From NCBI RefSeq assembly GCF_988242995.1, contig NZ_OZ547043.1: 64,000 nucleotides of DNA; one strand, given 5' to 3'. Position 1 is the stretch's first letter, and each line of letters begins with the position of its first letter. The notes beneath the pieces are model-generated. The model saw nothing but the letters and a program-made list of their open reading frames with translations, did not search any database and was not told the origin of the DNA. Of this stretch, positions 5,621 through 17,985 are shown in pieces. A program made the translations under genes and the position numbers.

Positions 5621-6136
5621 ATGAAAAAAATTGCATGTCTTTCAGCACTGGCCGCAGTTCTGGCTTTCACCGCAGGTACTTCCGTAGCTGCGACTTCTAC
5701 CGTAACTGGCGGTTACGCACAGAGCGACGCTCAGGGCCAAATGAACAAAATGGGCGGTTTCAACCTGAAATACCGCTATGAAGAAGACAACAGCCCGCTG
5801 GGTGTGATCGGTTCTTTCACTTACACCGAGAAAAGCCGTACTGCAAGCTCTGGTGACTACAACAAAAACCAGTACTACGGCATCACTGCTGGTCCGGCTT
5901 ACCGCATTAACGACTGGGCAAGCATTTACGGTGTAGTGGGTGTGGGTTATGGTAAATTCCAGACCACTGAATACCCGACCTACAAACACGACACCAGCGA
6001 CTACGGTTTCTCCTACGGTGCTGGTCTGCAGTTCAACCCGATGGAAAACGTTGCTCTGGACTTCTCTTACGAGCAGAGCCGTATTCGTAGCGTTGACGTA
6101 GGCACCTGGATTGCCGGTGTTGGTTACCGCTTCTAA
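5621..6136 (+). CDS. ompX: Outer membrane protein X
   Basis: MKKIACLSALAAVLAFTAGTSVA signal peptide followed by a beta-barrel sequence ending ...GVGYRF; 171 aa. Confidence 0.95.
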   Translation: MKKIACLSALAAVLAFTAGTSVAATSTVTGGYAQSDAQGQMNKMGGFNLKYRYEEDNSPLGVIGSFTYTEKSRTASSGDYNKNQYYGITAGPAYRINDWASIYGVVGVGYGKFQTTEYPTYKHDTSDYGFSYGAGLQFNPMENVALDFSYEQSRIRSVDVGTWIAGVGYRF

Positions 6137-6185: not shown

Positions 6186-7768
6186 TAAGGTTTCGGGTCG
6201 AAAATATCGGTTCCGAGATGGTTGTAATCCACCTTCTGTAACTGGAAGTTGGTGATGTATATCGGCCCGGCTTTCTTCTCAGATATAAACGGGTATTTGA
6301 TGTTAATTTCCTTCGCTTTAATTCCCGTCCACTGGGAGAAAAAGCCTAAGAAGTCATTGGCAGAGCGGCGGGCTTTAATCACCCGATGCGCTTTATCGTC
6401 GCTCGAAATGACCATAAAAGGCACCTGGAAATTTTGCTGATATTTATCATCATGGGCAAGGTATTGCACGTCTTTGCCGCGCTCTTTAAAGGCCAGACCG
6501 TGGTCAGAAAAGTAAACCAGCGAGAAGCTACTGCCGCTGTTGCGTAACTGATCGTACAGCTTACGCAATAAATCGTCCGTTTGCGTCATGGTATAGAGAT
6601 AGCACGACGTTTCTTTCGATTGCACAAAGGTTTCGTATTTGCCTTGTGTCCGGTCGCAAGCTTGCGGATGTGAGCCCATCAGATGTAAAACAATCAGCTG
6701 CGGTTGCGAGTGCTCTTGTGCCAGCACTTGAGCGGTCATATCCAGTAACGCTTCGTCTTTCGTGTTTTTATCTGCTTCAAAATTACCTTCTTTCAGGAAG
6801 TACACTTCATCTGCACGTTTGGCGATGCTGGCGATGGCTGTATCGTATTCGCCGATTTGGCCCTGGTTGGAAAACCACCAGGTCTGGAAGCCCGCGCGAT
6901 TTGCCAGGGTGACAAAGTTATCCTGAAACTGTGGTTTGCCATCGACTACGCGATTGAGCGTTAAGCCAAGCGATTTCTGCGTGGAGCCACTGGCGGCAAT
7001 GTAGTCAGCAAATATCAAACCGTTAACGCTGCTGGCAAACGGGGTATTGTCCCAGTGACCGCCAAAGGCACCGAGGGCATCGCGACGCGCGCTTTCACCG
7101 ATCACCACCACATAGGTCTGATACTTCGGCTTAACGGCAGTGACCGTCCAGGTATCTTTCATTCCGGAAAGTTTTGCCATCCGTTCTTGCTCTTCAATCA
7201 CCTCGTTATTATTGACGATGACATCCTTAGCAAAACGAAATACCGGATAGCCAGTATCTTTCAGTTTAAATACGCCGCCCCAGGCCAGGTTTTGCACGGG
7301 AGCAACAAAAAATGTCGCCACACTGAATACCAGACACAGGCTATCGAAGGTATTCCAGCGCGCTTTTTCACTCTCTTTTTTTCGCCGGATTGCTATTACG
7401 CCGAGCGCAAAAATAAATAAGCCGACCAGGTAGCTGTACCACGGAAAAATCGTCAGGATTTCGGTCGACTCTTCCATATTGGTGGAGTGCAATGCCAGCA
7501 ATGTATTGAAGTTAGGCGCGCCGTAGGCCTGAGCAAAAGGGAAATAACAAGCCGCCACCAGCGAACTGACACCGACCAGAACTTTTTGTACGCGAGGCAA
7601 TGTTCGCCATAGCAAAAGCAAAATAGCCGTAAACGCAGCGGTGTAAAGCAAACTGAAGGGATAACCTAAGCCGAGGTTAATTAATAGCGACTGTAAAAAG
7701 TAGAACGCAGTCCACGGGCTAAATACCCGGCTACGGGTAACAAGCGATTCTTTGAGGGTTAAATTCAT
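6185..7768 (-). CDS. opgE: Phosphoethanolamine transferase for osmoregulated periplasmic glucans
   Basis: 527-aa ORF with an N-terminal multi-TM domain and a C-terminal sulfatase-like domain; matches YbiP/OpgE. Confidence 0.9.
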   Translation of the reverse strand: MNLTLKESLVTRSRVFSPWTAFYFLQSLLINLGLGYPFSLLYTAAFTAILLLLWRTLPRVQKVLVGVSSLVAACYFPFAQAYGAPNFNTLLALHSTNMEESTEILTIFPWYSYLVGLFIFALGVIAIRRKKESEKARWNTFDSLCLVFSVATFFVAPVQNLAWGGVFKLKDTGYPVFRFAKDVIVNNNEVIEEQERMAKLSGMKDTWTVTAVKPKYQTYVVVIGESARRDALGAFGGHWDNTPFASSVNGLIFADYIAASGSTQKSLGLTLNRVVDGKPQFQDNFVTLANRAGFQTWWFSNQGQIGEYDTAIASIAKRADEVYFLKEGNFEADKNTKDEALLDMTAQVLAQEHSQPQLIVLHLMGSHPQACDRTQGKYETFVQSKETSCYLYTMTQTDDLLRKLYDQLRNSGSSFSLVYFSDHGLAFKERGKDVQYLAHDDKYQQNFQVPFMVISSDDKAHRVIKARRSANDFLGFFSQWTGIKAKEINIKYPFISEKKAGPIYITNFQLQKVDYNHLGTDIFDPKP

Positions 7769-12907: not shown

Positions 12908-15283
12908 TTAACGCATCCATTCACTCCCTTCAACACCATTGACCAGCAGCGTGCGTTTTTCTTCCACTGGTAATGACACTTTCAGTGCACTCCATGCAGG
13001 TCGATAATCCCCGCGCGCGTTGACTTTCAGGTTGATGGTCGCCCCATCGCAAACCATTTCCCATTCCACCCAAAGCGCATTACCAGTTTGGTAGCCCCAG
13101 CTTTCGCCATCGTCTTCAAACAGCAGGCCGGACGTTGTGCCCACACCTTTCAGCGGGAACAGTTTCAGTTCGCGGGTATCGTCTTGTTCTGCGCTCACAT
13201 AGGTGATGCGTTTGCTGAGCGGTAGACCAGCCCCGGCACGCACCATCAGCGGCAGTTTCTCCAGCGGTGCGTCGAGGGTGATCCACTGACCGCCACTGAA
13301 CCATTCGCCGTTGTAGAAATCGTACCAGCCAGTTTCGTTATCTGGCAGCCATACACGGCGCTGGCGCTCGCCTTGCTCTACGACGCTGGCAACCAAAATA
13401 TCGCGACCAAGCAGGAAGTCATCACACTCTTCAAAAGTCTGAACGTCGTGCTCGTGGTCAAGGAAAGTCGGACGTAGCATTGGTTCATCATCGGCGTATG
13501 CCTGCCACATCAGGGTATAAAAGTAGGGCAGCAGGCGATAGCGCAACTCAATAGCGCTGCGGATCGCCGGAGTGACGCCCGGATACATCCACGGTTCGTT
13601 TACGGTATGGTCATCGTTCCACGAGTGAATCGTAAAGCGCGGATGCATCACGCCGTTTTGTACCCAGCGTACAAACAGTTCCGGGTCCGGCTTATCACCG
13701 GAGAAACCGCCGACGTCGTGACCGAGGTTATACAGCCCGGAGAGGCTCATCCCCAGACCCATGCGGGTGTTGTAGCGCAGAGTGTCCCAGCTAGTGCGGT
13801 TATCGCCACTCCAGGTCTGCACGTAGCGCTGCATTCCCGCGCAGCCGGAGCGGGAGATCAAGTACGGACGTTTTTCCGGAGCGAAACGCTGCTGGGCTTC
13901 CATCGAGGCTCGCATCATCAGCAGTGGCATCACTGGGCGAATATGTTTGATCGCGATCGTCTGACCAAAGCCGTGACAGCGTGCTTCACCGTCCCATACT
14001 TCGAATTCGTTGTTGTCGTTCCAGGTGGAGTCGATACCCATCTCCAGAAGCTGTGTGGTCACGCCTTCCTGCCACCACTGGATGGTCTGCGGATTAGTAA
14101 AGTCGAGGTTAGAACCTTCGTCATCCCAGAAGCTGGAACGTTCTGGTTCATCTGTTTCTGAATCACGGATGAACAGTCCTCTTTCTGCCACTTCGTTATA
14201 GCGTGGGTGATCCTGCAACAGGCACGGCTTGATATTGGCGGCCAAGTGCAAACCAGCATTGTGAAATGCCTGGCTCATCACTTTCGGCTGCGGCACTTTG
14301 TCGTAATTCCAGTTGAACACATAGCGCTTGCCGTTAATTGAGGTATAACCGGAAGAGAGCTGGAACGAATCGCAGGGAATCGCATGTTCTTCACACAGGC
14401 GGATAAAGTTCATCAACTGATTTTGTGCGTCCGGCGCATCGGTGTAGTGCATAGTTGAACCGCTGTAGCCCAGGCTCCATTTCGGTCCGAACAGGGTTTT
14501 GCCGGTCAGGCGTACGAAGGCTTTGGTGATATCAAGTACGCGTTCGCCGGTAAACAGGTAGTAGTCGATATCACCCGCTTCCGCCTGCCAGCGGCGATAG
14601 GCGGTGTGGTAGTTGTCGATCTCGTTGCCCAGATCCAGCCAGCAGCTGCTGAGGTTGTCATAAAACAGGCCGAAGCTAACGTCATCGCGGCGGGTGATGG
14701 TGAATGGAATGTGTTTGTACAACGGGTCAGTACTAACGGCGTTGTAGCCCATCGCGTCGAGGTTACGCATCTCGTAACGTTTACCGTTGCGTTGCAGGTC
14801 GCCGGCTTTATCTCCGAGGCCATAAAAGCGTTCATCTTTACGACGGCTCTGATAGTGCGCCACGCCGTCGCCGTGGGCATTCAGCAGATAAGCGCTGGTC
14901 GGGCGGTCATTCACCAACGGCAGCCATTCGCCTTCGTTGTTACGATAGTGCCACTCCAGCCACAGCGGCTGGTGAACGGTGGCACGCAGTGACTCGGTGG
15001 CGATAACCACGGTGTCGTCGTGCTGGATCAATGTCCACGCGGGCAGGCTAAAGCCGCTGAGATCTTCGCGGCTGCGCCCTTCCCATGGCACATCCTGCGC
15101 CGGAGCAATGCTCCAGGTGCGATCCAGCGCCAGCTCGCCTTTGCGTTTTAACAGCACGCGGAACAGATTTTCTTCCAGCACGTACAGGCACAGGATATGC
15201 TGGCCATCGACCAGCAGTTCAACGTGGTGGGCAGACTGTTTGTGCAGGGTCCAGTTTTTCAGCGTTTTCATGTTTACATCCAT
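12908..15283 (-). CDS. Glycoside hydrolase family 31 alpha-glycosidase, cytoplasmic, substrate unknown
   Basis: 791-aa ORF with a GH31 nucleophile-region motif (GIDSTWNDNNEF, compare WIDMNE) and acid/base-region motif (VQTWSGDNRTSW). No signal peptide. Start may be the ATG at 15283 or 15271. Confidence 0.85.
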   Translation of the reverse strand: MDVNMKTLKNWTLHKQSAHHVELLVDGQHILCLYVLEENLFRVLLKRKGELALDRTWSIAPAQDVPWEGRSREDLSGFSLPAWTLIQHDDTVVIATESLRATVHQPLWLEWHYRNNEGEWLPLVNDRPTSAYLLNAHGDGVAHYQSRRKDERFYGLGDKAGDLQRNGKRYEMRNLDAMGYNAVSTDPLYKHIPFTITRRDDVSFGLFYDNLSSCWLDLGNEIDNYHTAYRRWQAEAGDIDYYLFTGERVLDITKAFVRLTGKTLFGPKWSLGYSGSTMHYTDAPDAQNQLMNFIRLCEEHAIPCDSFQLSSGYTSINGKRYVFNWNYDKVPQPKVMSQAFHNAGLHLAANIKPCLLQDHPRYNEVAERGLFIRDSETDEPERSSFWDDEGSNLDFTNPQTIQWWQEGVTTQLLEMGIDSTWNDNNEFEVWDGEARCHGFGQTIAIKHIRPVMPLLMMRASMEAQQRFAPEKRPYLISRSGCAGMQRYVQTWSGDNRTSWDTLRYNTRMGLGMSLSGLYNLGHDVGGFSGDKPDPELFVRWVQNGVMHPRFTIHSWNDDHTVNEPWMYPGVTPAIRSAIELRYRLLPYFYTLMWQAYADDEPMLRPTFLDHEHDVQTFEECDDFLLGRDILVASVVEQGERQRRVWLPDNETGWYDFYNGEWFSGGQWITLDAPLEKLPLMVRAGAGLPLSKRITYVSAEQDDTRELKLFPLKGVGTTSGLLFEDDGESWGYQTGNALWVEWEMVCDGATINLKVNARGDYRPAWSALKVSLPVEEKRTLLVNGVEGSEWMR

Positions 15284-15285
15284 TC

Positions 15286-16593
15286 TCAGGCGCGTTTTGC
15301 GCGACGTTCAGCAATAAAGGTGACCAGGAAGAAAGCACCAATCAGGTCAAAGAAGCCCATGGCGATAAACAGGGGGTTAAAGCCGATTTTGTCAGCGGTA
15401 ACCCCGATAATCAGGGAGAACAGGAAACTTGCGATCCACGCGGCAGAACCGCGCATGCCGTTAACAGTGGCCATCTGACCTTTGTCGAAGGATTCCACCA
15501 CCAGTGCGCTCAGCATGCAGGAGATGATCTGGTGACCGAAGCCGCCGATGGAAATAAGGACGATGGCGATATACGGGTTATTGGTAAAGGCCATCACCGC
15601 CAGCGAAACCATCAGGAATGCGCCACTGACCGATGATGCGACAACGGAGTTCACACGACTCAGCCCAAACAGGCGGGTGTAAAGTTTGGTCAGATAGCCG
15701 CTGGCAATACTGCCAAGATCAGCGGCGAGGAACGGCAACCAGGCGAATAATGCGATCTGCTTAAGGTCCATGCCATAGGTTTTGGACAGGTATAGCGGAA
15801 CCCAGAAACTCATCACCGCCCACGCCGGTTCTGCCATAAAGGCCGGGATAGCGATACCGTAAAAGCGTTTATTTTTGCCTACGGTTTTCAGTGCGGTCAG
15901 AAAGGGTAACTTGACAGGGGGCGCTTCGTTATCCTGGCGGATAAAGTCCAGCTCGGCTTTGCTGAGGTTAGGATGCTTATCCGGGTTGTGATAGAACGCC
16001 CACCACAGCACCACCCACAGCATCGCCAGGATGCCAGTGAACATAAATGCACCCTGCCAGCCGAATGAAGCGTGGGCAAAATAGATAATCGGTGGGGCCA
16101 GCATGGCACCGATGGAAAAACCGACGCCTGCCCAGCCTGCGGCGATCGGGCGTTCTGATTTTGGAAACCATTCACCGATGGTTTTGGCGTTTGCTGGGGT
16201 TGCCGCGGCTTCCGCACCGCCCATAAAGAAGCGCAACAGCGCCAGATGTACCCAGTTTCCCGCCCCCGCATGCATCAGACAGGCCAGCGCCCACAGTCCC
16301 GCGCAGATCATAAAGCCCAGTTTGAGGCCAATGACGTCAATCAGCCATCCACACAACGGTTGGAATAGGGTATAGGCGAGCTGGAAAGCACCTACAATCC
16401 AGGAATATTGTTCGGTGGTAATCCCCAGGCTGCTTTTCAGTTCGGGGGCGAGAATACCCAGCGAGTTACGCGTGATGTAGTTGACAGTAACACCGAGCAA
16501 AAAAAGGACCAGTATCCACCAACGCAGATTTTTGACGATATGGCGCGGTTTACTGGCAGTCATATCGTTATTGATACCCTGACTCATATGCAC
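15286..16593 (-). CDS. MFS transporter, anion:cation symporter (ACS) family-like
   Basis: 435-aa 12-TM-type ORF with an ACS-like N-terminal signature (RWWILVLFLLGVTVNYITRNSLGILAPE...). Its stop lies 2 nt upstream of the GH31 ATG, indicating an operon. Confidence 0.85.
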   Translation of the reverse strand: MHMSQGINNDMTASKPRHIVKNLRWWILVLFLLGVTVNYITRNSLGILAPELKSSLGITTEQYSWIVGAFQLAYTLFQPLCGWLIDVIGLKLGFMICAGLWALACLMHAGAGNWVHLALLRFFMGGAEAAATPANAKTIGEWFPKSERPIAAGWAGVGFSIGAMLAPPIIYFAHASFGWQGAFMFTGILAMLWVVLWWAFYHNPDKHPNLSKAELDFIRQDNEAPPVKLPFLTALKTVGKNKRFYGIAIPAFMAEPAWAVMSFWVPLYLSKTYGMDLKQIALFAWLPFLAADLGSIASGYLTKLYTRLFGLSRVNSVVASSVSGAFLMVSLAVMAFTNNPYIAIVLISIGGFGHQIISCMLSALVVESFDKGQMATVNGMRGSAAWIASFLFSLIIGVTADKIGFNPLFIAMGFFDLIGAFFLVTFIAERRAKRA

Positions 16594-16881
16594 TCCACAG
16601 AATGGTATAGGGTTTGTGCGGCAACGTCAGAATGGAGTTGTCACACCACTTTTAACTTTTTGATAAATAAAGTCTTTATTGTTCGTTTTTCCATTATTTT
16701 TGTATGGAAGTTGTTCTACCAATTCACAGTAAGAGACCCTAAAAGCGAAAGAAAGCGGGTTTTGTGCACGTTTTTCCATGAGTGACTGATATACATTACT
16801 GAAATGGATTTAATGCCAGACAGAATGGGCTTTTTTGCTCATGAAAATTCTGTCATTTCCGAATTAGAGGCAGATCACAAA

Positions 16882-17985
16882 ATGGACAAGAAGCTGAAAA
16901 TCGCCGATATCGCCGCACGTACCGGGCTATCGCCGAGTACGGTTTCGCGGGTGCTGGCTGGCAAAGCGAATACCAGTGCACGCGCTCGCGAACAGGTGCT
17001 GGCCTGCGCGCGTGAGTTGGGCGTGATGGATGGCATGGCAGCAGGTCGTATGTTGCTGAACAACCTGATTATTTTCGCGCCGCAACGCGCTTTTGACCAA
17101 CGATCTGATATCTTTTATTACCGTGTGATCCAGAGCATCAGCAAAGCGTTATCGCCGCATGAAGTGCGGCTGCGTTACTGCGCGCTGGAGGAGTTTGACA
17201 GCGATCCCGCGCTATTTCTCTCGCGGATGAATGAAGCAGATACGCAGGCGGCGATCCTGCTGGGGATTGACGATCCGCACATCCATGATCTGGCCGCCGA
17301 TCTCGCTAAGCCTTGTGTGCTGATCAACTGCCGTGATGAACGAATGCGCCTCCCGGCGATTGCGCCGGACCATCGGTTAATTGGCGCGTTCGCCGCCCGC
17401 TATCTGTTTGAAATGGGTCACCGGGAGGTGATGAATGTGATGTGCCTGCGCCGCTACACTATGGAGCAGCGGTTTGCAGGGATTAAAGAATCATGGCGTC
17501 AGCATAATCTGGCCTTTCACCATGACCGTCATTTGCTGAATATCAGCAGTTTTAGCGCTAAAGAAGCGGAAGAAAAGGTCGGAGCGTGGCTGGATGCCGC
17601 CAATGGCAAGACGTTGCCGACGGCGTTTCTGGTCGGCGGGGATTTTATGGCGGCGGGAACGGTAAATGCGCTACATCGTCGTGGTCTGCGCGTACCACAG
17701 GATGTCTCGGTGATGAGTATCGACGGCTTTAACCTTGCGGCAATCGAGGATGTTCCCCTGACGGCTGTGCATGTGCCACGCGATGAGCTAGGCAATGAAG
17801 CGGTGCAAATGTTGCAACAGCGGCTGATTCGCCCGGATGCTCCGGTGGGCTCGCTGCTGCTGCACGGACGATTGGCGGTGCGGGAGTCAGTGCGGCGGGT
17901 TCGCCCAGGAAAAGGGAACACCGCCGTGGAACGGGAAGGGCTGTACGACACTCAGCTGTCGATTCCCAACGCTCGCTTACCGTGA
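16882..17985 (+). CDS. LacI-family transcriptional regulator, divergent from the MFS-GH31 operon
   Basis: N-terminal HTH KIADIAARTGLSPSTVSRVL followed by a periplasmic-binding-protein-like sugar-binding core. Start chosen at MDKKLKIADI; upstream in-frame ATGs exist, so the start is uncertain. Confidence 0.8.
   Translation: MDKKLKIADIAARTGLSPSTVSRVLAGKANTSARAREQVLACARELGVMDGMAAGRMLLNNLIIFAPQRAFDQRSDIFYYRVIQSISKALSPHEVRLRYCALEEFDSDPALFLSRMNEADTQAAILLGIDDPHIHDLAADLAKPCVLINCRDERMRLPAIAPDHRLIGAFAARYLFEMGHREVMNVMCLRRYTMEQRFAGIKESWRQHNLAFHHDRHLLNISSFSAKEAEEKVGAWLDAANGKTLPTAFLVGGDFMAAGTVNALHRRGLRVPQDVSVMSIDGFNLAAIEDVPLTAVHVPRDELGNEAVQMLQQRLIRPDAPVGSLLLHGRLAVRESVRRVRPGKGNTAVEREGLYDTQLSIPNARLP

Follow-up and report, generated by a model that had tools for sequence, protein, structure and literature searches.

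The accessory island and its divergent spacer

The window, by which is meant the whole 64,000-nucleotide stretch of DNA under analysis, carries a three-gene accessory island at the ybiT/ybiU insertion site, in which a GH31 glycoside hydrolase gene and an MFS transporter gene face a gene for a LacI-family regulator (Table 1). The island is carried by 577 of 5426 complete E. coli genomes (~11%) and is absent from E. coli K-12. The closest solved relatives of the GH31 protein are alpha-glucosidases, including glucosidase II and a Flavobacterium GH31 enzyme, and its gene is found at every orthologous locus. The MFS transporter is 43% identical over 414 aa to the K-12 hexuronate transporter ExuT and matches NCBIfam TIGR00893, the D-galactonate transporter family. 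The divergent GH31-MFS / LacI cassette is present with a spacer of 255-312 bp in 80 species-level genomes, and Yersinia, Pectobacterium and Serratia also carry it, their spacers being longer at 320-393 bp. A search of the literature on LfaR, the predicted regulator discussed below, and on GH31 together with ExuT returned nothing about this island.

The limits of the spacer follow from the two start codons. The regulator ATG at 16882, the start used in the preliminary description of this region, is the first methionine in nearly all of 23 aligned orthologues and is thereby supported, while PGAP, the NCBI automatic annotation, places the start at 16825. For the MFS gene, the ATG at 16587, which is kept at all loci and has an invariant GGAG upstream, is preferred over the GTG at 16593, so that the spacer measures 294 bp (16588-16881) and not the 288 bp first given. 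The Shine-Dalgarno-like GAGG of the regulator gene lies at an unusually large distance of 11-12 nt from the ATG. Between the two is an invariant GATCACA heptamer that is also identical in Yersinia, Pectobacterium and Serratia. A coding role for the heptamer (…D-H-K-M, read from an upstream start codon) was rejected, as the upstream ATG is missing in E. coli, which has TTA, and in Pseudocitrobacter, and as the heptamer lacks synonymous variation, its would-be wobble positions being without any change. A short leader ORF (ATG AGC GGG AAA TAG) behind a Shine-Dalgarno-like TAAGGGAG occurs in Enterobacter-type spacers; it is missing in E. coli, Kluyvera and others and is therefore not a shared feature. 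No terminator was found in a scan of positions 16500-16950.

Table 1. Genes, candidate regulatory sites and repeats in and around the spacer, in order of position in the window. Aligned identities refer to 78 orthologous spacers compared with that of the window unless stated otherwise.
Feature	Position	Strand	Remarks
GH31 glycoside hydrolase gene, operon gene 2	12908..15283	-	Pfam Glyco_hydro_31 domains
MFS transporter gene, ExuT paralogue, operon gene 1	15286..16587	-	ATG at 16587
Shine-Dalgarno GGAG of MFS gene	16593..16596	-	CTCC (+ strand) identical in 78/78 orthologous spacers
CAGAATGG, copy 1	16598..16605	+	MFS leader, just upstream of Shine-Dalgarno; identity 0.52, no orthologue identical
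GGGTTTGTGCGG	16610..16621	+	variable sequence; aligned identity 0.27
CAGAATGG, copy 2	16628..16635	+	variable, gapped columns; identity 0.21; last 2 nt touch flank of box A
Box A, AAAGTGGT-GTG-ACAACTCC, ExuR/UxuR-type 8-3-8 inverted repeat	16634..16652	-	MFS leader
Box B, GAATTGGT-AGA-ACAACTTC, ExuR/UxuR-type 8-3-8 inverted repeat	16707..16725	-	directly downstream of putative −10
Putative −10 TACTGT (TAnnnT) of MFS-GH31 promoter	16726..16731	-	A....TA (+ strand) invariant in 79/79 spacers
GGGTTTTGTGCAC	16757..16769	+	left flank and left arm of O1; identity 0.98 in 10 closest relatives
O1, GTGCACGTTTTTCCAT, candidate second LfaR operator	16764..16779	+	imperfect copy of O2, 77 bp upstream
CAGAATGG, copy 3	16821..16828	+	unconserved O1-O2 linker; identity 0.32; includes PGAP's start ATG (16825)
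O2, ATGAAAATTCTGTCAT, principal candidate LfaR operator	16841..16856	+	in 79/79 spacers and 3 distant genera
Shine-Dalgarno-like GAGG of regulator gene	16867..16870	+	alignment conservation; GGAG in most orthologues
Invariant GATCACA	16873..16879	+	identical in 78/78 orthologues
LacI-family regulator gene, LfaR orthologue	16882..17985	+	Pfam LacI and Peripla_BP domains

Two conserved 16-bp sites upstream of the regulator gene

Phylogenetic footprinting was carried out on 82 Enterobacterales loci with the GH31–MFS / LacI cassette, with counts taken over 79 distinct spacers. The mean aligned identity of the whole spacer to that of the window is 0.54, and conservation is concentrated in discrete blocks. 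These include elements of the protein-binding type, which bears out the earlier description of the spacer as a divergent control region; as judged from the alignment, it is a genuine control region, and its conserved sites are two 16-bp sites, O1 and O2, and two boxes of the hexuronate-repressor type, A and B.

The O2 site has the consensus ATGAAAA-TT-TTTTCAT, a 7-2-7 palindrome, and ends 25 nt before the regulator ATG, a distance that is constant in the 79 spacers and in three distant genera; its start lies at −41 from the ATG in essentially all 82 spacers. Pairing is found at 7/8 symmetric positions in the consensus ATGAAAATTTTTTCAT and at 5/8 in the copy of E. coli. The palindrome of LacI type that the preliminary description had been unable to recognise does exist. 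The O1 site starts at −118 or −119 from the same ATG in nearly all 82 spacers and shares R-TG-M-AA…TTTYTCAT with O2. It is strongly asymmetric in Enterobacteriaceae, with 3/8 pairs in E. coli, and more palindromic in Yersinia, Pectobacterium and Serratia. These three genera have it at the same distance, and it reaches up to 6/8 pairs in Pectobacterium by manual count. The 61-nt linker between the sites is only 41% conserved. In approximately 1 Mb of loci scanned with a position weight matrix (PWM) for the sites, 253 of the 260 matches of at least 12 bits fall inside spacers.

By sequence similarity, the regulator is orthologous to LfaR, a RegPrecise entry that was predicted computationally. 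Full-length BLASTP identities are 76-78% to CKO_02295, Ent638_1314 and KPN_00854 and 55-61% to ECA1966, Spro_3600 and y3231, and the Pectobacterium, Serratia and Yersinia loci encoding the latter three have the cassette. LfaR is regulog 4996 in the supplement of Ravcheev et al. 2014 (PMC4052901), where it is assigned to 'Sugar utilization' with its effector unknown and is listed with 6 genomes and the number '23', presumably of sites. The RegPrecise collection 'LfaR – Enterobacteriales' is a computational prediction only, and its orthologous regulator and its divergent GH31 and MFS neighbourhood are found at the present locus. Its six genomes exclude E. coli because K-12 lacks the island. The O1 and O2 sites are presumed to be the LfaR sites of RegPrecise.

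Both sites can be measured against the features of the LacI family at large, whose motifs are even palindromes of 16-22 nt, with 75% of sites lying 30-140 bp upstream from a start codon and 72% of regulators autoregulated (PMC4052901). The O2 site is an even inverted repeat within this size range and O1 weakly so, and their positions at −41 and −118 from the regulated start are within the usual interval. In common with LacI/GalR operators such as lac O1 and those of PurR, Cra/FruR (TGAAAC|GTTTCA) and CcpA (cre), they are 16-bp even inverted repeats with TG…CA at the outer positions, and O2 further resembles these operators in its A/T-rich arms, its location 26-41 bp upstream of the start of its own regulator gene and the presence of an auxiliary site nearby. 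In contrast to the family, neither O1 nor O2 has the central CG. The centre of O2 is TT, its two positions being T in 73/79 and 76/79 spacers, and that of O1 is variable, whereas CG is found in 90% of family motifs (1173 of 1303, with another central pair in 49 and a degenerate one in 29; PMC4052901). As 49 and 29 of the 1303 depart from the standard, a central CG is typical and not obligatory. The regulator itself also departs from the family, as its hinge reads GVMDGMAAGR. The usual LacI-family hinge motif is Y-x-P-N-x-x-A.

Conservation of the left arm of O1, TTTTGTGCA, is independent of the rest and points to an additional constraint, for instance CRP. The O1 site could wholly or additionally be a CRP site (TGTGC-N6-TCTCA) that activates one or both promoters, leaving O2 as the sole LfaR operator, and the asymmetric conservation of the left arm, with C at position 4 in 73/79 spacers and a TTTT flank, agrees with this, as does the Enterobacter-type TTTTGTGCAAGCTTTCTCAT, which matches 8/10 core CRP positions. 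CRP sites are common in sugar operons including exuT, the K-12 exuT region containing TGTGATGGCTCTCACC, and the operon promoter described below is without a −35 element, which would suggest activator dependence. The E. coli O1, TGTGC/TTCCA, nevertheless has 3/10 mismatches (7/10 core matches), and a simple binomial estimate gives about two matches of this quality by chance per 300-bp spacer on both strands. The Citrobacter-type TATGC/TTTCA (6/10) lacks the CRP-critical first G, as do Yersinia, Pectobacterium and Serratia (TTTGA or TTTGC), in which the 16-bp O-type symmetry fits better. Furthermore, the centre of O1 at 16770.5 lies at approximately −51.5 from the inferred operon start, which is not a position of class I or class II (−41.5, −61.5 or a further helical repeat), and the invariant positions of O1 are common to O2, a poor CRP match. 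A role for CRP at O1 is thus considered unlikely.

That both sites are instead boxes of KdgR, the IclR-family repressor of the pectin/KDG pathway, and not LacI-family sites, is highly improbable. The outer half-sites of O1 and O2, ATGAAA/TTTCAT-like, do resemble the KdgR boxes of kduI, kdgK and kdgT, and the link to sugar acids would suit the hexuronate flavour of a cassette with an ExuT paralogue and ExuR-type boxes. The K-12 boxes of kduI (AATGAAACATTGTTTTATT), kdgK (ATGGAACACTGTTTTAA) and kdgT (AATAAAACAGCGTTTCAAT) are, in contrast, 17-bp sequences of 7-3-7 structure with an AAAC-AnT-GTTT core, whereas O1 and O2 are 16-bp sequences of 7-2-7 structure that lack this core. In addition, the distance of O1 and O2 to the regulator start is fixed in every regulator-bearing genome, even those with much longer spacers, which is the expected behaviour of a cognate autoregulatory operator. 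The assignment of O1 and O2 to LfaR is taken below as the most likely one.

Hexuronate-type boxes at the putative operon promoter

The leader and putative promoter region of the MFS-GH31 operon contains boxes A and B, two inverted repeats with arms of the AAATTGGT…ACCAATTT type that are characteristic of the hexuronate regulon in E. coli (exuT, uxaCA, uxaB, exuR, uxuAB and uxuR). Relative to AAATTGGT-type arms, the left arms match at 7/8 positions and the right arms at 4-5/8, the same range as in the K-12 boxes. Box A closely matches the K-12 uxaC box AAATTGGT-GTG-ATAACTTT and has its left arm AAAGTGGT in common with the box of the K-12 exuR promoter. The 3-nt centre of both boxes is that of the 8-3-8 boxes contained in the K-12 exuT, uxaC, uxaB and exuR promoters. 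With a PWM built solely from three K-12 boxes (exuT, uxaC and uxaB), box A scores 15.6 bits and box B 15.3 bits, making them two of the three best matches in the 64 kb, and the median best match in orthologous spacers is 16.7 bits versus a shuffle 95th percentile of 9.8. Scores are poor in some distant members, namely Mangrovibacter, Buttiauxella and Franconibacter.

Box A is conserved across orthologues and box B is identical in 9/10 closest relatives, with counterparts in Serratia (TTGGTATACCAA), Yersinia (TTGGTTCACCAA) and Pectobacterium (TTGGTTTACCAA). Unlike the K-12 exuT-type boxes, those of these three distant genera have a 2-nt centre, the 8-2-8 spacing being UxuR-like. The arrangement also differs from the hexuronate regulon in that the target is an accessory GH31 operon and that two boxes lie 73 bp apart. 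Repression of exuT by ExuR is established (PMC6989600), and the sequence AAATTGGTATACCAATTT functions as a UxuR operator in a biosensor (PMC8092373). The K-12 uxuB-uxuR spacer contains the native box ATTTGGTTGACCAGTTT and not the exact AAATTGGTATACCAATTT, which makes the operator of the biosensor an idealised version. The literature searched, which did not extend to the comparative hexuronate-regulon papers, yielded no report of this accessory GH31 operon as an ExuR/UxuR target.

The TAnnnT hexamer at 16731-16726 is the putative −10 element of the operon promoter, its inner bases varying among spacers while A....TA stays fixed. As in the hexuronate regulon, box B would overlap the start region of a promoter, here a putative one, driving the ExuT-like transporter. 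No recognisable −35 accompanies the hexamer, and neither a −35 nor a −10 was identified in the spacer for the regulator promoter. A consensus promoter scan of 16500-16950 returned one weak minus-strand site (TTGGTA-18-AATAAT), no more than shuffles give.

Alternatively, boxes A and B might not be protein sites but pair with each other as a conserved RNA helix within the MFS 5′ leader, acting as a cis-regulatory RNA. In spacers of the Enterobacter type, TGTCACAC of box A is the exact reverse complement of GTGTGACA of box B, and the A/B pair changes together in Kosakonia. Each box alone is an ExuR-type inverted repeat, though, and any two such boxes are therefore mutually complementary, while box B of E. 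coli and Kluyvera (TTGTTCTACCAA) is not complementary to box A. Since box B directly adjoins the −10, the greater part of it may lie before or across the start of transcription. A search of Rfam at permissive E-values gave only sub-threshold chance matches to unrelated families, none above half its gathering score, the best being an unrelated eukaryotic snoRNA at 20.8 bits versus a threshold of 45. A leader helix is accordingly given very little credence, and boxes A and B are read here as putative binding sites of the hexuronate-repressor type.

Short repeats in the spacer

The preliminary description had drawn attention to short repeats in the spacer as candidate operator half-sites. The octamer CAGAATGG does occur three times, the first two copies one base from where they had been placed, and GGGTTTGTGCGG and GGGTTTTGTGCAC, which are related to each other, are both present. 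There is local enrichment, and the whole 64-kb window has 6 copies of CAGAATGG versus 1.9 expected, a number reached in 3/100 shuffles. The excess over chance is weak and marginal, since word length and copy number could be chosen freely: when the 288 bp were shuffled 20,000 times with dinucleotides preserved, 4.5% of the shuffles had some 8-mer at least three times, as do 4/443 of the real 288-bp windows of the 64 kb. The longest exact repeat, the 11-mer CGTTTTTCCAT at 16684 and 16769, had been missed. Its copy at 16684 was considered as a third LfaR site and rejected, as the PWM for the sites gives it <6 bits and it is unconserved.

Footprinting had been proposed along with these repeats as one means of judging them, a lack of conservation in orthologous loci being taken to refute their role, and such a lack is what is found for all three copies of CAGAATGG and for GGGTTTGTGCGG. 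Their aligned identities (0.21-0.52 for the octamers) are at or below the spacer mean, 76/79 distinct spacers contain no CAGAATGG at all, and among the 79 spacers only that of the window has any 8-mer three times. In the closest relative, Escherichia sp. L075, the spacer has 9 substitutions, of which three fall in octamer copy 1 and GGGTTTGTGCGG (two in GGGTTTGTGCGG) and none in O1, O2 or boxes A and B. The exception is GGGTTTTGTGCAC, which overlaps a conserved block: columns 16758-16770, 13 positions offset one base to its right, have an identity of 0.74 across the 78 orthologues. It owes its conservation to O1, whose left flank and left arm it forms, and as GGGTTTGTGCGG is unconserved, GGGTTTGTGCGG and GGGTTTTGTGCAC are not a pair of half-sites. 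The reading of the CAGAATGG octamers and the GGGTTTGTGC-type 12-13-mers as LacI-family operator half-sites is scarcely credible, given also that the octamers are direct repeats, irregularly spaced 30 and 193 bp apart, and LacI-family motifs are palindromes. As judged from the alignment, CAGAATGG and GGGTTTGTGCGG are lineage-specific coincidences, specific to E. coli.

A model for control of the island

The model that is favoured, with reasonable though not high confidence, is that of a shared divergent control region acted upon by LfaR through O1 and O2 and by ExuR, possibly UxuR, through boxes A and B. It starts from the observed conservation, fixed geometry, box similarity and regulator orthology, from which we infer the pairing of binders with sites, where the promoters lie and in which direction regulation runs. 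The 294-bp spacer would serve two divergent units, the MFS-GH31 operon and the regulator gene. LfaR would bind O2 and O1 and so repress the gene that encodes it and probably the operon as well; as O2 ends 25 nt before the regulator start, binding there would shut off the regulator's own promoter, whose transcription start is predicted to lie within O2 or shortly after it. The operon promoter would consist of the minus-strand −10 followed directly by box B, with box A in the leader. As the boxes are of the E. coli hexuronate-regulon type, co-repression of the operon by ExuR (possibly UxuR) is expected through both of them. Release of the operon would then take hexuronate-derived inducers together with the sugar ligand of LfaR. 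The operon is predicted to be transcribed from near 16719 on the minus strand. The centre of O1 would lie approximately 52 bp upstream of this start, and a position near −52, upstream of the predicted promoter, is unusual for simple repression.

A wider reading, which is speculative and on balance rather doubtful, is that the region constitutes a two-key switch for an uncharacterised system of alpha-glycoside uptake and hydrolysis linked to hexuronate metabolism. This system, conserved across Enterobacterales, would comprise a transporter paralogous to ExuT and a GH31 enzyme whose specificity has yet to be described, with the hexuronate product sensed by ExuR or UxuR and the glycoside sensed by LfaR. 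LfaR at O1, near −52, might then act as an activator or anti-activator on the −35-less promoter and not as a simple repressor. The rigid O1–77 bp–O2–25 nt–ATG geometry and the GATCACA heptamer could reflect a further, undescribed layer of control, such as protein-protein bridging or translational control of the regulator.

Taken together, the region is a bacterial sugar switch of an ordinary kind that had been predicted before. Control of a divergent promoter by a local repressor plus a pathway repressor is textbook logic, and the value of the analysis is in annotation and the generation of hypotheses and not in concept. For this accessory sugar island, a site map backed by footprinting replaces plausible but wrong 'operator repeats', and the island is now tied to the existing, computational LfaR regulon prediction. 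The boxes suggest that the operon also belongs to the hexuronate (ExuR/UxuR) regulon, and such membership would narrow the search for the substrate of a GH31 and ExuT-like pair that is conserved across enteric bacteria.

Gene context and orthologous loci

The window is from E. coli. Its GH31 glycosidase, MFS transporter and divergent LacI-family regulator make up a block inserted between ybiT and ybiU, which 577 of the 5426 complete E. coli genomes carry. The transporter belongs to the anion:cation symporter family and is a paralogue of ExuT (43% identity), and the nearest solved relatives of the GH31 enzyme are neutral alpha-glucosidases. The GH31 enzyme does not reach the cut-off of any NCBIfam equivalog model. 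The regulator is orthologous to LfaR, with 76-78% identity to CKO_02295, Ent638_1314 and KPN_00854 and 55-61% identity to ECA1966, Spro_3600 and y3231. LfaR is the subject of RegPrecise regulog 4996, which lists six member genomes under 'Sugar utilization' and names no effector (PMC4052901 supplement).

The ATG at 16882, assumed as the regulator start in the preliminary description, corresponds to M1 of nearly every one of the 23 orthologues aligned and is, on this alignment, most likely the true start of a 367-aa protein; the RefSeq/PGAP start at ATG 16825 gives 386 aa, of which the 19 added residues are unconserved. An invariant GGAG lies ahead of the transporter's start codon, ATG 16587, and the spacer between the two start codons is therefore 294 bp long (16588-16881). 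One scan of species-representative genomes yielded 80 loci with the same cassette in Kluyvera, Citrobacter, Enterobacter, Klebsiella, Kosakonia, Salmonella diarizonae, Cedecea, Siccibacter and others, with regulators 69-97% identical and spacers of 255-312 bp. The Yersinia, Pectobacterium and Serratia loci (L082-L084) share the GH31-MFS/LfaR layout and have longer spacers (320-393 bp). The Yersinia cassette (L082, 9324-17083) adjoins a glycosaminoglycan-type cluster containing a GH88 unsaturated glucuronyl hydrolase, a sulfatase and its radical-SAM maturase, a KduD-like dehydrogenase and an aldolase, and its GH31 gene is followed downstream by another gene of the LacI family.

Features of the cassette and its divergent spacer, with the E. 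coli K-12 hexuronate boxes used for comparison
Feature	Position	Strand	Sequence or remark
GH31 glycosidase gene	12908-15283	-	
MFS transporter gene	15286-16587	-	
LacI-family regulator gene	start ATG 16882	+	
Box A	16634-16652	- (MFS strand)	AAAGTGGT-GTG-ACAACTCC, 8-3-8 inverted repeat
Box B	16707-16725	- (MFS strand)	GAATTGGT-AGA-ACAACTTC, 8-3-8 inverted repeat
Putative −10	16731-16726	- (MFS strand)	TAnnnT (E. coli TACTGT), directly upstream of box B
O1, predicted LfaR site	16764-16779		E. coli GTGCACGTTTTTCCAT
O2, predicted LfaR site	16841-16856		E. coli ATGAAAATTCTGTCAT; consensus ATGAAAATTTTTTCAT, a 7-2-7 palindrome
GATCACA	16873-16879		2 nt upstream of the regulator's ATG
K-12 uxaC promoter box			AAATTGGT-GTG-ATAACTTT
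K-12 exuT promoter box			AAAGTTGT-ATG-ACAAGTTA
K-12 uxaB promoter box			GAATTGGT-ACG-ACAGGTTA
K-12 exuR promoter box			AAAGTGGT-ATA-ACAAATAT

Short repeats of the spacer

The preliminary description had proposed short repeats in this spacer as operator half-sites. The repeats are present, with the octamer CAGAATGG on the + strand at 16598, 16628 and 16821 and the 12-13-mers GGGTTTGTGCGG and GGGTTTTGTGCAC at 16610 and 16757, and their excess over chance is small. At least three copies of some 8-mer occur in 4.5% of dinucleotide-preserving shuffles of 288 bp and in 4 of 443 real 288-bp windows of the 64 kb, and the six window copies of the octamer, against 1.9 expected, are reached in 3 of 100 shuffles. 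The PGAP start codon of the regulator falls within the third octamer copy.

Footprinting by MAFFT alignment of 79 distinct spacers places the octamers and GGGTTTGTGCGG in variable columns, with identities to the window of 0.52, 0.21 and 0.32 for octamer copies 1, 2 and 3 and of 0.27 for GGGTTTGTGCGG, against a whole-spacer mean of 0.54. The octamer is missing from 76 of the 79 spacers, and no 8-mer is present three times in any other spacer of this set. Of the nine substitutions that distinguish the spacer of the nearest relative, Escherichia sp. L075, three fall within octamer copy 1 and GGGTTTGTGCGG and none within the conserved blocks. Non-conservation, which the preliminary description itself had named as refuting, thus rejects these repeats as operators. 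The exception is GGGTTTTGTGCAC, whose supposed partner GGGTTTGTGCGG is variable but which is itself conserved because it overlaps a conserved site (identity is 0.74 for the 13 columns 16758-16770, which are shifted one base rightward from the motif, and 0.98 over 16757-16769 in a close group of relatives).

Predicted LfaR sites

Across 82 genomes the alignments reveal conserved blocks in a fixed geometry, which by sequence resemble LacI-type palindromes and the boxes of the K-12 hexuronate regulon. Two of these blocks, O1 and O2, have the common pattern R-TG-M-AA…TTTYTCAT. In 79 of 79 spacers the end of O2 lies 25 nt upstream of the ATG; the starts of O1 and O2 are 77 bp apart in 69 spacers and 78 bp apart in nine, while the 61-nt linker is only 41% identical. 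The Yersinia, Pectobacterium and Serratia spacers keep the O2 start at −41 (ATGAAAATTTTTTCAT, ATGAAAACTTTGTCAT and GTGAAAATATTTTCAT) and the O1 start at −118 or −119 (TTGAAAGAATTCTCAT, TTGAAAACATTTTCAT and TTGCAAAAATTTTCAT), with higher O1 symmetry than in E. coli. The scoring matrix (PWM) derived from these sites is specific: about 1 Mb of orthologous loci gave 260 hits that reached 12 bits or more, of which 253 are inside the spacers. In the window it also matches the ompX start codon (5621-5636, 23.5 bits; minus strand ATGCAATTTTTTTCAT), where the + strand ATGAAAAAAATTGCAT encodes the first ompX codons (M-K-K-I-A), probably a coding coincidence.

Motifs of LacI-family regulators are palindromes with an even length of 16-22 nt, with 75% of sites lying 30-140 bp upstream from a start codon, autoregulation in 72% of regulators and a motif centre that is CG in 1173 of 1303, different in 49 and degenerate in 29 (Ravcheev et al. 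2014, PMC4052901). O2 agrees with all of these rules except the central CG. Because of their co-occurrence, geometry and fit to the family rules, O1 and O2 are assigned to LfaR as predicted sites. The longest exact repeat of the spacer, the 11-mer CGTTTTTCCAT (16684-16694 and 16769-16779), was absent from the preliminary list; its second copy forms O1's right arm, and the first was rejected as an LfaR site (<6 bits, unconserved).

Occupancy of O1 by CRP, possibly as a dual-use site, would fit the asymmetric conservation of the left arm and the Enterobacter-type sequence, which matches 8 of 10 core positions, but is unlikely, as the 7 of 10 found in E. coli are what chance would give in a spacer of such length, several clades lack the critical G and the position relative to the inferred transcription start is non-canonical. 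It is highly improbable that O1 and O2 are KdgR boxes, which in K-12 are 17-bp 7-3-7 elements with an AAAC-AnT-GTTT core unlike either site.

Downstream of O2, all 78 orthologues and L082-L084 have an identical GATCACA, without synonymous-type variation, which places the constraint on the nucleotide sequence. The Shine-Dalgarno-like GGAG of the regulator is unusually distant from its ATG (11-12 nt). A Dam site (GATC) is part of GATCACA, which is also similar to a CRP half-site or to GAUCAC of the 16S rRNA 3′ tail.

ExuR/UxuR-type boxes and the predicted operon promoter

Boxes A and B share the 8-3-8 architecture of the K-12 uxaC, exuT, uxaB and exuR promoter boxes, unlike the uxuA boxes with their 2-nt centre. 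With a PWM from only three K-12 boxes (exuT, uxaC and uxaB), boxes A (15.6 bits) and B (15.3 bits) are two of the top three matches in 64 kb, and the median best and second-best matches of the orthologous spacers are 16.7 and 10.6 bits, compared with 95th percentiles of 9.8 and 7.0 in shuffles. The third match, TAACTGATCGTACAGCTTA (6545-6563, 15.8 bits), lies in opgE coding sequence and is probably due to chance. An ExuR/UxuR-type assignment fits with the UxuR operator AAATTGGTATACCAATTT that is functional in a published biosensor (PMC8092373), with the established repression of exuT by ExuR (PMC6989600) and with the identity of the transporter to ExuT. There is scarcely any likelihood that boxes A and B instead constitute an RNA element, as no Rfam family comes near its threshold and their mutual complementarity is accounted for by both being palindromes of one family.

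All 79 spacers keep the T, A and final T of TAnnnT, with variation confined to the inner bases; this is the signature of a −10 element and predicts a promoter. A −10 at this position would place the transcription start near 16719, so that box B would span it, box A would belong to the leader and O1 would sit at about −52. By our own count, the distance from box B to O1 is 39 nt in both E. coli and Serratia, and genus-level length variation therefore lies in the MFS leader rather than in the core module. Enterobacter-type spacers (L026, L043, L054 and similar) have, in the stretch from the operon −10 to O1 (columns aligned to window 16730-16756), a Shine-Dalgarno-like TAAGGGAG and after it a 4-codon ORF (ATG AGC GGG AAA TAG); E. 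coli and Kluyvera lack this ORF, and in Citrobacter-type spacers its frame is shifted.

Proposed regulation

LfaR at O2 would repress its own gene, and at O1, alone or bridged to O2, would modulate the operon promoter, where its action from −52 on a −35-less promoter could be of either sign. ExuR or UxuR on boxes B and A would block initiation and elongation of the operon transcript, and induction would then require both the ligand of LfaR and a hexuronate-derived inducer. The combination of an ExuT paralogue, a GH31 enzyme and ExuR-type boxes (window 12908-16587) hints at an uncharacterised glycoside substrate tied to hexuronate metabolism. The kind of element is a textbook one and the regulon has already been predicted computationally for sister genera, to which E. 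coli is added as a new member of the predicted LfaR regulon.
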